Program-made: the position numbers and the translations under genes
Notes under the pieces: generated by a model
What the model saw: the letters and a program-made list of their open reading frames with translations, nothing else
Told to the model about the DNA's origin: nothing
Databases searched by the model: none
Shown here: piece by piece, positions 59,968 through 62,294 of the stretch
How positions within the stretch are numbered: the stretch's first letter is position 1
Layout of the letters: every line of letters begins with the position of its first letter
DNA from: a virus
Taxonomy: Duplodnaviria > Heunggongvirae > Uroviricota > Caudoviricetes
Strand: one strand, 5' to 3'
IMG/VR virus record: IMGVR_UViG_3300029516_000004
Coordinates: 1 to 64,000 of that record
Length of the DNA stretch: 64,000 nt

Positions 59968-60043
59968 TGGTGGCCCCTACCGGACTTGAACCGGTGACCG
60001 TGCGATTATGAGTCGCCAGCTCTAACCACTGAGCTAAAGGGCC
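59968..60043 (-). tRNA. tRNA-Ile (anticodon CAU, ileX-like)
   Basis: Cloverleaf GGCCCTT...AGGGGCCACCA, anticodon loop CUCAUAA; resembles E. coli ileX as recalled. Confidence 0.85.
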
Positions 60044-60318: not shown

Positions 60319-60743
60319 CAGATATACTGTTCCAGTGGCAATTGAAGAGCCTGGGCAATTTTCTTCAATTGCTCCTGCTCTTCTGCCCCAATGCCATCCT
60401 GGTCAGCAATATCAATGCATAGGCACAGAACATCTACCGCATCATTAGTTCCAGACACGTCAGCCAGTTCACGTAAAGCCTGGGCATTCGCTCGGCGCGG
60501 CGAGGCTTCATATTGAGCGCGAATATTGGCACTCATCTGGGCAATTTCACCGGAGAACGGCGCAAAGGCAGGAAGTGCTGCAATGGTTTTTTCCAATACT
60601 GCAATTTCTTTCGCATCGCAGGTGCCGTCAGAGTATGCAATGGAATATGCGCCCCAGACAGTCGCTTCCACCGCATCACGGTTTTCCATCTTCTTGACTC
60701 CGCCAGCCGCTTTGCGGAATTTCTTTTTGAGAATGCCGAGCAT
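60318..60743 (-). CDS. TerB-like protein (Tci family)
   Basis: 141 aa; TerB-type pattern (DGTCDAKEIAVLEKTIAAL...GAEEQEQLKKIAQAL); GAGG RBS. Confidence 0.7.
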   Translation of the reverse strand: MLGILKKKFRKAAGGVKKMENRDAVEATVWGAYSIAYSDGTCDAKEIAVLEKTIAALPAFAPFSGEIAQMSANIRAQYEASPRRANAQALRELADVSGTNDAVDVLCLCIDIADQDGIGAEEQEQLKKIAQALQLPLEQYI

Positions 60744-60922
60744 TTATTAACCTCATTACTGGTTGGGAAATAAGGTTGCGGTGCCGGGTGCCTCCCGGTG
60801 TCCTTTAGCTGGTTATCCACCGTGGACGGGGAAATAAGGAGAAATAATGGACAGATATAACCATTTCCCCGCGTGCGCTTAGCCGCATTCACCGCAACGG
60901 AAAGAGCATTCCTGGTGGACCT

Positions 60923-60947
60923 GTAGATTGGGATATGAACCCGTTAC
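60923..60947. repeat. 25-bp direct repeat copy A (loop of a 10-bp-stem hairpin)
   Basis: gtagattgggatatgaacccgttac flanked by aagagcattc / gaatgctctt. Confidence 0.7.
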
Positions 60948-61201
60948 AGGAGAATGCTCTTACCTGTTACGTGCTCCGTTTCGTGGAGCTAACGGCGGGT
61001 GATCGGGCCGCACCAGACTGGACTTATTTCAGCGTTATGCTCATGCCAGAGAATCAAACTGTGATGGTCGGTGCTGAACTCCGACACAGGGTTGTAGCAA
61101 GCCCCGCAAAGCGCGCACTACTGTAGTTGCGGCACATCAGCCTGTGCATTCACCACAATGTTGAGAACACTGGTTGTCACGCTGCAACGCAACATTTATT
61201 C

Positions 61202-61226
61202 GTAGATTGGGATATGACCCCGTTAC
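61202..61226. repeat. 25-bp direct repeat copy B (loop of a 19-bp-stem hairpin)
   Basis: gtagattgggatatgaccccgttac (24/25) flanked by acaatgttgagaacactgg / ccagtgttctcaacgttgt. Confidence 0.7.
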
Positions 61227-61392
61227 GCCAGTGTTCTCAACGTTGTTGTGCCGGTTACGGTTCCGGCCAGGCCTCTTCCTCAACGGGGTGTTCTCCATAC
61301 GGACTACCGTTTATTGGTCGTTCCTGCGGTTTATGTTGTGAAGCCAGATGCTTATCTTCTGGTTGCTTCAAAGAGCTGCACTTCATCACAAC

Positions 61393-61470
61393 GGTAAGGG
61401 TACTTCGTAGGGATTCGAACCCTCTGCCAAGCTCGGCGATCTCCGACGTCGCAAAATACCCTTACCTGTT
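61393..61470 (-). other. tRNA-like fragment closed by a perfect 10-bp stem
   Basis: GGTAAGGGTA...TACCCTTACC encloses a T-arm-like AGGGTTCGAATCCCT; no full cloverleaf. Confidence 0.25.
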
Positions 61471-61474
61471 GTGC

Positions 61475-61550
61475 TGGTGCCGATTAACGGACTCGAACCG
61501 CTGACATCCTGCTTACAAGGCAGGCGCTCTACCAACTGAGCTAAACCGGC
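61475..61550 (-). tRNA. tRNA-Thr (anticodon UGU)
   Basis: GCCGGTTTAGCTCAGTTGGTAGAGC...CTTGTAA...GGTTCGAGTCC...ACCA. Confidence 0.9.
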
Positions 61551-61552
61551 AT

Positions 61553-61628
61553 TGGCGATGGTGGATGGATTTGAACCATCGACCCGTTGATTAACAGTCA
61601 ACCGCTCTAACCGCTGAGCTACACCATC
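61553..61628 (-). tRNA. tRNA-Asn (anticodon GUU)
   Basis: GATGGTGTAGCTCAGCGGTTAGAGC...CTGTTAA...GGTTCAAATCC...GCCA; 2 nt from tRNA-Thr. Confidence 0.9.
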
Positions 61629-62294
61629 ACTTGCCGGGTACGTCTCCGGCGAGGGCTTCCACCTCCGTATGCTTTTCGGCGCACCGCGCCCTGGCTGCAA
61701 TTCGGTAACAGGGGATGCACAACCCTGGCTTCCAGCGTGATTAGCGCCTTCAGCATGACGGGATATACCCGTAAATTCGTGGAACTGTACCCAAAGTGCT
61801 GTTAAGCACCGCTGTTACGCTGAAAAGAAAACGCAACAGGAAAGGACGCTGACCAACAGATGGCCCCTTCTCGTTCATCTGGTTAATCACACCAGCGCCC
61901 TTACCTGTTGTGCCTCCCCGTTCCCTAATACACAGACGGGGACACTCTGCGGTCGATTTTTTTGACGGGGGACGACTCATACCCCGTGGCATCTGGTTTC
62001 TTAGGCCGCTACCATCATCAGATCATCGTTTGCATTTACTTTAATGGTCAGTTTCTAAACCGCCGCAAAGTCGCTAACCATGACGAAAACCCTGAAAAAA
62101 ACGCCCACCCGAAGATGGGCAAACTGGAAGCTCGTAACGCACTTCGGCGTTGCCACTTAGGCGCATGGTCAACCTGGCAACTCGGTGGTTTGTCTGGGAG
62201 GACTAGGCCCAGCCATGCTTACCGCCGCGCCTGTCGCGGCTAACAGCTAAATCGCTCTATAAATCACGATTCATTGAGGCGATATTACACTAAT

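Follow-up and report, generated by a model that had tools for sequence, protein, structure and literature searches.

A conserved hairpin beside tRNA-Thr in the phage P1 ban-operon leader belongs to a widespread family of phage RNA hairpins

We report that an inverted repeat beside tRNA-Thr in phage P1, here called element C, is one of four P1 members of a widespread family of phage RNA hairpins and not a decayed tRNA gene. The stretch of DNA analyzed (the window) is 64,000 nucleotides long, positions 1 to 64,000 of the IMG/VR virus record IMGVR_UViG_3300029516_000004, and represents phage P1, with 99.6-99.7% identity to AF234172 and NC_005856 over 60700-62000. Element C occupies 61387..61473 on the minus strand, where it is transcribed within the untranslated leader of the C1-controlled ban operon. 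As far as we checked, the family is undescribed and unannotated; the P1 copy is new, and its kind is exemplified by a hairpin in the late leader of lambda. A literature search on the arm sequences and on the tag peptides described below found no paper, and no feature is annotated for the element in NC_001416, J02459, the P1 records or RefSeq E. coli.

Results

Element C is a long bulged hairpin directly downstream of tRNA-Thr

Read on the minus strand, element C has the layout 5'-CACAAC-A-GGUAAGGGUAUUUUG-[interior]-CGAAGUACCCUUACC-GUUGUG-3' and begins 1 nt after the CCA of tRNA-Thr (61475). CACAAC (61468..61473) pairs with GUUGUG (61392..61387) in an outer helix, and a bulged A at 61467 separates this helix from an inner stem in which all 15 positions of the 5' arm GGUAAGGGUAUUUUG (61452..61466) pair with 61407..61393, two of them as G.U. 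The 3' arm CGAAGUACCCUUACC (61393..61407) was recognized in the fold, in the reading of the sequence and by the covariance model R1 described below, which scores the whole hairpin at 61.3 bits. Folding of the 78-nt RNA gives -32.4 kcal/mol for the minus strand (z = -3.9 relative to shuffled sequences) and a weaker structure for the plus strand (z = -2.9). The 3' side of the interior holds a T-arm-like hairpin, AGGG-UUCGAAU-CCCU (61409..61423), which fits a T-arm pattern of a 5-bp stem and a 7-nt UUCRANY loop with a 4-bp stem, as the fifth pair would be G.A. A tentative anticodon-arm-like hairpin, GCGAC-GUCGGAG-AUCGC (61436..61451), was read from the sequence and from variants of the C type, and has a 5-bp stem with a 7-nt loop only in one variant (L061).

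The initial annotation had placed here a tRNA-like fragment closed by a perfect 10-bp stem. This stem is present as the inverted repeat GGTAAGGGTA / TACCCTTACC, with arms at 61393-61402 and 61457-61466; the second arm does not lie at 61461-61470, and an end at 61470 takes in four surplus bases (TGTT). The enclosed loop is real, but it is 54 nt long and not about 56 nt. By itself a 10-bp stem is not beyond chance: 25 such 10-mers, spread over about 13 places, occur in the window, where Markov simulations give 4 +/- 2. The T-arm-like sequence already noticed, AGGGTTCGAATCCCT, is the minus-strand reading of 61409-61423, and the absence of a full cloverleaf was borne out, as ARAGORN and the Rfam tRNA model call no tRNA. 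The observation is thus confirmed, while its interpretation, as a decayed fourth tRNA, a processing element or a relic attachment site, is partly supported.

At 61387-61473 no tRNA was found by ARAGORN, by Rfam at the gathering score or by Rfam relaxed to E<=10 on 1.7 kb. The element has no 7-bp acceptor stem, unpaired NCCA or D-arm, and its closing stem comprises 15 bp plus 6 bp. Searches with all Rfam families (gathering score and E<=10) and with finders of tRNA and transfer-messenger RNA (tmRNA) returned nothing credible on element C; matches to microRNA-precursor and plastid families were rejected as generic hairpin or T-arm noise. The only YrlA (RF02553) match in the region scores 25.6 bits against a gathering score of 69 and covers the two true tRNAs rather than the hairpin. 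Retrons, CRISPR-repeat mimics and ToxI-like repeats were also considered and set aside, there being no reverse transcriptase or repeat similarity.

Members of the family share their arms and differ in their interiors

A pattern scan of viral contigs, designed from the copies in P1 and in Enterobacter phage BUCT554 and fixing part of the arms, gave at least 120 loci, with 73 distinct sequences among the matches listed. The arms of these sequences are near-identical (consensus AACAGGUAAGAGCAUUG ... CAGUGCUCUUUCCGUUG) and their interiors are unrelated. The family is characterized by a 6-bp outer helix CACAAC/GUUGUG, a bulged A and an inner stem of 13-17 bp (consensus GGUAAGAGCAUUG/CAGUGCUCUUUCC) around a freely differing interior of 29-90 nt, the interiors measuring 29-58 nt in the pattern scan and about 90 nt in phages Magnus and KP591P1. 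Element C shows each of these features, with its outer helix, bulged A, inner stem of at least 13 bp and variable interior, all on the transcribed strand.

R1 was built from 45 scan sequences and three P1/P7 copies. A sequence identical to element C is in its training alignment, so that the 61.3 bits of element C are by construction; independent support for membership comes from the pattern scan and its 73 distinct sequences. R1 also finds many diverged members in the loci, in which the helices are kept with other sequences (paired arms GAUAAUGGC/GCCAUUAUC, GAUAAUGGCAUUG/CAGUGCCAUUAUC and GUUGAGACCACUG/AAGUGGUCUCAAC). In the model-based alignment 96.4% of the cells in 18 modelled pairs are paired, against 34-57% in controls with slid partners, and 11 of the 18 pairs have changed on both sides. 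The covariation score is 0.257 compared with 0.140 in shuffles, none of 500 of which reached 0.257.

Removal of reverse-strand duplicates left 68 distinct stems, in which pairing is at least 91% at each stem position and the A is bulged in 60. A U.G wobble, which on the other strand would be a C.A mismatch, is found in 45 of the 68, and scores with R1 are about twofold higher on one strand. Together, the covariation and the conserved U.G wobble show a strand-specific RNA structure. The third inner-stem pair is a U.U mismatch in 46 stems and U-A in 18, copy C included. McClain and colleagues are said to have reported in 1988 that U.U at 3:70 retains alanine identity in vivo. The idea of a chargeable alanine minihelix, which arose from the third-pair mismatch, was rejected for copy C, which has U-A there, no CCA end and too long a stem.

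Four co-oriented copies in P1 and their counterparts in relatives

Across the 64-kb window R1 finds exactly four copies, all on the minus strand and within 1.1 kb, the next match scoring 11.9 bits. Element A (60891..60973; 59.7 bits) coincides with the inverted repeat I4 and holds GGG-UUCAUAU-CCC in its interior. The other two copies are diverged and are in the training set of R1: element B (61152..61252; 47.7 bits), with the stem GUUGAGAACACUGG, corresponds to the inverted repeat I1 (23 nt, 91% complementary), and element D (61830..61914; 44.8 bits) lies upstream of tRNA-Asn, directly after the tag module discussed below. Element C scores 61.3 bits (E=5e-16) on the minus strand and 29.4 on the plus strand, where the four copies score 22-29 bits.

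Comparison with relatives indicates that the stem is kept while the interior is exchanged. Where P1 has element C, the stem found in P7 and Ro157c2YLVW is the same but closes another interior, 29 nt long and lacking a T-arm, and copy A of Ro157c2YLVW lacks exactly the 13-nt T-arm-like insert and is otherwise kept. In copy D of D6 both helices carry compensatory changes (CACAAC/GUUGCG to CAUAAC/GUUACG). Outside the P1 group, BUCT554, an unrelated Uetakevirus, has an 85%-identical homolog of element C whose stem differs by three compensatory double changes. The possibility raised at the outset, that relatives would reveal a random spacer, is therefore answered by a conserved structure. Element C is also nearly invariant among 488 P1-like plasmids, with at least 95% identity in 487, but P1-like genomes typically agree to this degree, so that the figure means little.

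Close relatives differ in the tRNA genes present between the hairpins, as seen when Ro157c2YLVW (L002), D6 (L003), P7 (L005), L009, L051 and L104 are compared with window 61475-61628. Ro157c2YLVW has a tRNA-Tyr between Asn and Thr; elsewhere the array has Ser(UGA) downstream (P7 and D6) or Arg(UCU), Gly and Phe (other relatives). The hairpins are constant landmarks while the array varies. In contigs such as L026, L070 and L109 a hairpin of the C type and one of the P7 type stand in tandem, 134 nt apart, and because both types occur together there, P1 and P7 look like two alternative deletion products of recombination between shared arms.

These comparisons bear on whether element C is what remains of a fourth tRNA gene in the Asn-Thr array, decayed to the point of having no D-arm and no anticodon function. 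The canonical T-loop UUCGAAU on a 4-bp stem, the U33-like and purine-37-like positions of the GUCGGAG loop, and the location at the end of an array whose tRNA content changes between relatives (with Tyr in Ro157c2YLVW, Ser in P7 and D6, and Arg elsewhere) all speak for such an origin. We nevertheless regard it as very unlikely. Neither ARAGORN nor the Rfam tRNA model gives a match, even at E<=10, the closing stem is common to more than 70 elements whose interiors are unrelated to tRNA, and in the relatives P7 and Ro157c2YLVW that stem closes, at this very site, an interior without a T-arm. Moreover, a homolog of 85% identity whose stem has changed in a compensatory way, in a Uetakevirus unrelated to P1, is not a pattern of decay; the near-invariance in P1-like plasmids points the same way and, as said, counts for little. 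At most, the interior may have captured a tRNA fragment.

The hairpin occurs in co-oriented leaders of temperate and lytic phages

The lambda copy lies at 44,787-44,862 (R1 65.7 bits; L126, 986-1065), 8 nt after the T-run of tR', the terminator of 6S RNA. The 3' arm with a common GGUGAAU flank was found in at least 1039 of 5426 complete E. coli genomes, and no feature underlies any of the matches listed. The cryptic prophage DLP12 of E. coli K-12 lacks the hairpin in its quuD-essD interval. Among isolated phages, temperate as well as lytic, 298 have the arms, with hosts that include Salmonella, Klebsiella, Escherichia, Enterobacter and Pantoea; among the listed matches in annotated records, the only features beneath them are 'hypothetical protein' open reading frames (ORFs) and similar. 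Lytic carriers include the N4-like IME11, the Ackermannviridae phage Magnus, KP591P1, which looks T1-like, and the Sashavirus Sasha, and in all four the element lies in co-oriented non-coding gaps with tRNAs or small RNA (sRNA)-like RNAs.

All 107 tRNA genes predicted in the 120 loci listed share the strand of the element; 14 of these tRNAs end no more than 8 nt upstream of it, four start no more than 8 nt downstream, and in L012, L073 and L081 tRNA-Arg begins at the last G of GUUG. In lambdoid contigs of 30-55 kb, NinG, RusA and Q antiterminators are found upstream and holin, endolysin and Rz downstream, all co-oriented, these gene identities having been assigned by eye from the sequences. 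A T-run is present within 30 nt upstream in 24 of 107 contexts, and a GGUGAAU... STnc100-like module follows the hairpin in 51 of 107. Klebsiella phage Magnus has a full STnc100 match (L130, 3676-3890), which at 52.9 bits exceeds the gathering score of 47. The element falls in the region downstream of PR' that has been described as a 'moron' insertion site rich in sRNAs (Tree et al., PMC4104026). ORF-poor stretches with the hairpin, tRNAs and sRNA-like modules are also seen in BUCT554 (L004, 2100-2900; about 0.7 kb) and IME11 (L129, 1053-3139; about 2.1 kb), and both adjoin a gene of the N4 gp49 / Sf6 gene 66 family.

The distribution could also be accounted for if the element acted on DNA, either as a linker for recombination or as a small palindrome, mobile and of REP, MITE or attC type, by which tRNA and sRNA modules are shuffled between phages, and had no function as RNA. 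It occurs in unrelated phage families; the module content of P1, P7, D6 and Ro157c2YLVW differs exactly at the hairpins; tandem hairpins of the L026 type would yield P1 and P7 as deletion products; and the outline of the element, with an AAC...GUU base, an extrahelical base and a variable top, resembles that of integron attC sites. Against this, compensatory changes keep the pairing, which a protein-binding terminal repeat would not need, the U.G wobble is a C.A mismatch on the opposite strand, and orientation strictly follows transcription and the 107 tRNAs. Target-site duplications were not seen, and ten flanking ORF clusters inspected by eye showed no integrase or RAYT. The cores RYRYAAC / GTTRYRY do not fit RYYYAAC / GTTRRRY, and the element does not match the integron attC or REP type, which would call for such cores or a RAYT-type tetranucleotide together with an associated recombinase. 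Repeats may recombine at their arms without this being what they are for, and we consider a purely DNA-level element quite unlikely. The relic attachment site first suggested was rejected on copy number, orientation and occurrence in lytic phages: P1 has four co-oriented copies, the family populates transcribed leaders of lytic and temperate phages, and its U.G wobble is strand-specific.

The hairpins lie in the ban-operon leader

The P1 record places between dmt and ban the C1-controlled ban operon, which is read on the minus strand of the window. Transcription from Pban, annotated in P1 with the operator Op72 near 62282 (minus), would meet in order the dicF-like terminator, the tag module, hairpin D, tRNA-Asn, tRNA-Thr and hairpin C, followed by hairpins B and A, an STnc100-like RNA, tciABC, trnI and ban. 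Hairpins D and C thus flank the pair formed by tRNA-Asn (61628..61553, minus) and tRNA-Thr (61550..61475, minus), both identified by ARAGORN, Rfam and the P1 annotation. From tRNA-Thr to tciA there are about 730 nt without a minus-strand gene, and tciA-tciB-tciC, trnI and ban come next.

Two ORFs are annotated on the plus strand of this region in the P1 GenBank records, upl (60935-61126) and plp (61127-61504), a 'putative lipoprotein' that covers element C and runs antisense into tRNA-Thr. Were plp a protein gene, element C would be part of it and its stem coincidental, and these annotations of Plp and Upl on the opposite strand are what favors that view. The frame of plp, however, is broken by a stop in Ro157c2YLVW, by a stop together with a frameshift in L009, and by a split in P7; no gene is annotated at its position in P7 or D6, it overlaps tRNA-Thr in antisense, and the region is a chain of conserved RNA structures of the minus strand. 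plp is probably not a gene, and we consider it extremely improbable that element C belongs to one. The upl frame is intact in two relatives. Both ORFs are antisense to the chain of RNA structures, and plp to tRNA-Thr as well.

P1 also has an annotated 'dicF-like region' (62084-62185), inside which a strong intrinsic-terminator-like hairpin (GCCCAUCUUCGGGUGGGC, then U7) lies at 62121..62095 (minus), some 160 nt beyond Pban and ahead of the tRNAs and ban. Because this terminator sits between Pban and the genes, expression of the ban operon needs read-through or antitermination; a simple scan predicted no promoter between the terminator and tciA. In another alternative, hairpins of the family would serve as antitermination or anti-Rho elements, the boxA-like 3' arm loading NusB/NusE or the dense structure denying Rho a place to load, and RNA polymerase would thereby cross an untranslated leader of more than 1 kb. 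The 3' arm of most members reads GUGCUCUU(U/A)CC and has an apparent likeness to the boxA of rrn (UGCUCUUUA) and of lambda (CGCUCUUA). The arm CAGUGCUCUUUCC, present in most members and in copy A at 60899-60911, looks similar to the boxA of rrn operons and lambda nut sites (CACUGCUCUUUAACAA in rrnB); copy C and the diverged members lack the likeness. The 3'-arm sequence is conserved beyond what pairing needs, the element occurs in long untranslated leaders that contain tRNAs, as boxA does in rrn operons, and transcription in P1 must cross the terminator at 62121..62095. On the other side, boxA works as single-stranded RNA, but in the hairpin the sequence that resembles it is paired; the motif is lost and the stem kept in diverged members and in copy C (UACCCUUACC); and Q of lambdoid phages already makes RNA polymerase termination-resistant at this position. 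We therefore hold such a role to be improbable.

Other structured RNAs accompany the hairpins. Directly upstream of tciA, an STnc100/PasD-like RNA at 60777-60896 (minus) matches RF02076 with 34.8 bits and so does not reach the gathering score of 47. Another hairpin, GUUGUGAUGAAG...CUUCACAAC, occupies 61392..61335 (minus). Its 5' strand is GUUGUG (61392..61387), which could pair with the downstream CUUCACAAC; because GUUGUG is common to both, this hairpin and the outer helix of element C are mutually exclusive at 6 nt. The segment 61335-61392 is 95.5% identical to the Klebsiella phage records CP058330 (vB_Kpn_1825-KPC53) and PQ492289. Farther along the operon, ARAGORN predicts a tRNA-Met (CAU) at 59968-60043 (minus) where the P1 record has trnI, a tRNA-Ile2 and homolog of ileX whose CAU anticodon is presumably lysidine-modified.

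T-arm-like interiors and a tmRNA-like tag module

T-arm-like hairpins are present in 14 of the 73 distinct interiors, where shuffles lead one to expect 0.46, an enrichment of about 30-fold that involves about five independent interior types. They sit at the 5' or the 3' side of the interior, and their stems show some covariation (GUAGAG/CUCUAC, GCAGAG/CUCUGC). In Magnus and KP591P1 the interior has a multi-arm fold with the T-arm next to the 3' arm. The recurring tRNA-like look may reflect selection, or capture of fragments from neighboring tRNA genes.

The hairpin family led us to a second module, of which we found no description in the literature. Upstream of copy D, at 62001-62092 (minus), weak Rfam tmRNA matches and a tag reading frame mark a segment that resembles the mRNA-like domain of tmRNA, and such weak matches recur upstream of the hairpin in IME11 and Magnus. 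The matched segment, ...UAAAGUAAAU|GCA AAC GAU GAU CUG AUG AUG GUA GCG GCC UAA, contains at 62033..62001 (minus) the frame ANDDLMMVAA, 10 codons long and SsrA-like, with no in-frame start codon back to a UAG eight codons upstream. A scan for the module gave at least 119 viral loci and, among the matches listed, 17 tag variants, all of exactly 10 codons and all of the form AN(D/E/N)... ending in A, except one AP variant seen once. Its carriers are P1-like and lambdoid phages, the N4-like IME11 (L129, 1830-1925), the Ackermannviridae phage Magnus and KP591P1; the loci L130, L131, L051, L021 and L084 also have it. The loop of a hairpin 3' of the tag pairs with a downstream segment to form a pseudoknot, with covariation (CCGA/UCGG, CCAG/CUGG, GUCG/CGAC), and a conserved GCCCGG-UGUGAUUAAUAAU-GGGC hairpin comes next. 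The long hairpin starts 70-89 nt after the tag stop in 87 of 125 instances, and GUUGUG...CACAAC helices bracket the module. As for a tRNA-like domain, ARAGORN found no tmRNA in 125 tag loci taken with -600/+900 nt of flank, nor in the window. Matches to the Rfam tmRNA_permuted family were discounted, as they rest only on the single-stranded tag segment and the alignment deletes the tRNA domain.

These observations suggest a further alternative, in which the hairpins form a functional tRNA-like or tmRNA-related module, their T-arms being tRNA mimics that act with the tag module or as protein decoys. The enrichment of the T-arms, their spread over about five independent interior types and the covariation in their stems, the multi-arm interiors of Magnus and KP591P1 with the T-arm at the 3' side, the frequent position of the hairpin shortly after the tag stop, and a C-type hairpin that directly precedes the tag module in L021 are arguments in its favor. 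However, 59 of the 73 interiors, and that of lambda, have no T-arm, the basal stem measures 19-23 bp against the 7 bp of an acceptor stem, and there is neither a free CCA end nor a G3.U70. Nor did ARAGORN call a tmRNA in the 125 tag loci; element C receives no score from the Rfam models for tRNA, tmRNA and YrlA, and copy C adjoins a tRNA rather than the tag module. We judge this alternative unlikely, and the same holds for its wider form, in which hairpin family and tag module would make up a phage-borne, tmRNA-derived system that hijacks or jams ribosome rescue. Processed T-arm hairpins would then supply a non-canonical tRNA-like partner, or the RNA would act as a decoy; if so, ribosome rescue would be hijacked or jammed by many enterobacterial phages (P1, lambdoid, T1-like, N4-like and Vi1-like).

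Discussion

Because the structure is strand-specific, covaries, is strictly co-oriented and lies between RNA modules, we propose that the hairpin has a role at the RNA level through host machinery that its carriers share. The classical substrate of ribonuclease III (RNase III) is a helix of about 20 bp with a bulge or mismatch, and the enzyme releases RNAs in this way from T7 early RNA and rrn operons. Double-stranded RNA (dsRNA) of about two helical turns with such an interruption is provided in copy C by 6 + 15 bp with one bulged A, and in most family members by 6 + 2 + 10 bp with a U.U mismatch. Among the three interpretations first offered, a processing element fits best, given the long dsRNA stem, the transcribed strand, the abutment on tRNA-Thr and the homology to a hairpin at the start of the lambda late transcript, the cleavage itself being our inference. 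A 1988 paper by Daniels, Subbarao, Blattner and Lozeron (Virology 167:568), cited in PMC7547250 as reference 49, reportedly deals with RNase III processing of lambda late RNA in vivo. We give roughly even weight to hairpin C being, or not being, an RNase III punctuation site that separates tRNA and sRNA modules from the downstream mRNA.

On this proposal, the stem of about 20 bp would be a host RNase III site punctuating the polycistronic leader RNA of ban. Its cleavage would free the tRNA-Asn/tRNA-Thr pair from the downstream RNA, leaving tRNA-Thr with a short 3' trailer of about a dozen nt for exonucleolytic trimming and the downstream RNA with a base-paired 5' end. A module cut out between two hairpins would begin with the 3' half-stem of the first and finish with the 5' half-stem of the second. 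Since all hairpins share one stem sequence, these two half-stems would be complementary, as for D and C (CCUUUCC-U-GUUGCG and CACAAC-A-GGUAAGG), and could close into a protective terminal duplex, which would explain why the stem sequence is conserved beyond pairing alone. The interior, T-arm-like hairpin included, would be dispensable or accessory cargo, as suggested by the exchange of interiors at the same site in P7 and Ro157c2YLVW and by the copy A of Ro157c2YLVW that lacks the T-arm insert. In addition, the repeated arms are substrates for recombination.

Several points weigh against RNase III punctuation. Family members, that of P1 included, are known here from their sequence, and it is from structure, strand, conservation, covariation, family membership and context that we infer RNase III cleavage and all its consequences. 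The covariation alignment is fitted to the model, and P1 copies B and D were among the sequences used to train it. That the sequence of the stem, as well as its pairing, is strongly conserved goes beyond what RNase III requires and hints at another, sequence-specific partner or at concerted evolution by recombination. The enrichment of T-arms and the stem covariation within interiors are unexpected for discarded cargo, and four hairpins plus other stems in 1.1 kb exceed the needs of simple punctuation. For lambda, the published RNase III sites may lie just beyond the 6S terminator, and may or may not fall in this hairpin.

Overall, these results turn some 1.5 kb of P1 between Pban and tciA, annotated with two doubtful ORFs (upl and plp), into a chain of conserved structured RNAs, and identify one building block of the leader that is common to lambda and hundreds of temperate and lytic enterobacterial phages. 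This block is absent from Rfam and unannotated in the feature-annotated GenBank and RefSeq records examined, and the covariance model of the family offers a handle for annotating such leader regions. If the hairpins are RNase III punctuation with interchangeable half-stems, they would explain both how tRNAs, sRNAs and mRNAs can be expressed from one promoter and the easy reshuffling of the lambdoid 'moron' site, with its tRNAs and its toxin genes in Stx phages.

Several known systems resemble the family in part. The RNase III stems of T7 early RNA and rrn operons are, like element C, dsRNA of about 20 bp with a bulge or mismatch, placed between RNAs and near tRNAs, but they have no sequence relationship to it; here the hairpin is local, its top is variable, and the same sequence is repeated within a transcript. 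tRNAs (RF00005) and their pseudogenes share with it a UUCGAAU T-arm near the closing stem and the location in a tRNA array, whereas element C is without a D-arm, a 7-bp acceptor stem or NCCA and has a 15 + 6 bp stem in common with elements that are not tRNA-like. tmRNA and YrlA similarly join their 5' and 3' ends in a long stem that bears a T-arm-containing domain, and the family often adjoins the tag module; the hairpin differs in having no Rfam YrlA or tmRNA match, no conserved interior and no acceptor end. In copy C the third pair is U-A rather than G3.U70, CCA is absent, and the tag frame adjoins copy D. We know of no Ro/Rsr partner in E. coli K-12.

The STnc100/PasD prophage sRNAs (RF02076; Zhu, Shabalina, Storz, bioRxiv 10.64898/2026.05.13.724894) occupy the same niche as the hairpins, the late or leader 'moron' region of phages, but STnc100 is a neighboring module and not the hairpin, and the Rfam match in P1 runs from model position 31, after the 3' flank of the hairpin. 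The closest counterpart is the lambda late-leader hairpin, which has the same CACAAC-A-GGUAAG...CUUUCC-GUUGUG frame as element C (R1 65.7 bits for lambda, 61.3 for C) and, like that of P1, stands at the start of a long leader. The two differ in that the interior of lambda is unrelated and has no T-arm, and in that lambda has a single copy after a Q-controlled terminator, whereas P1 has four copies in the C1-controlled ban leader, one of which abuts tRNA-Thr.

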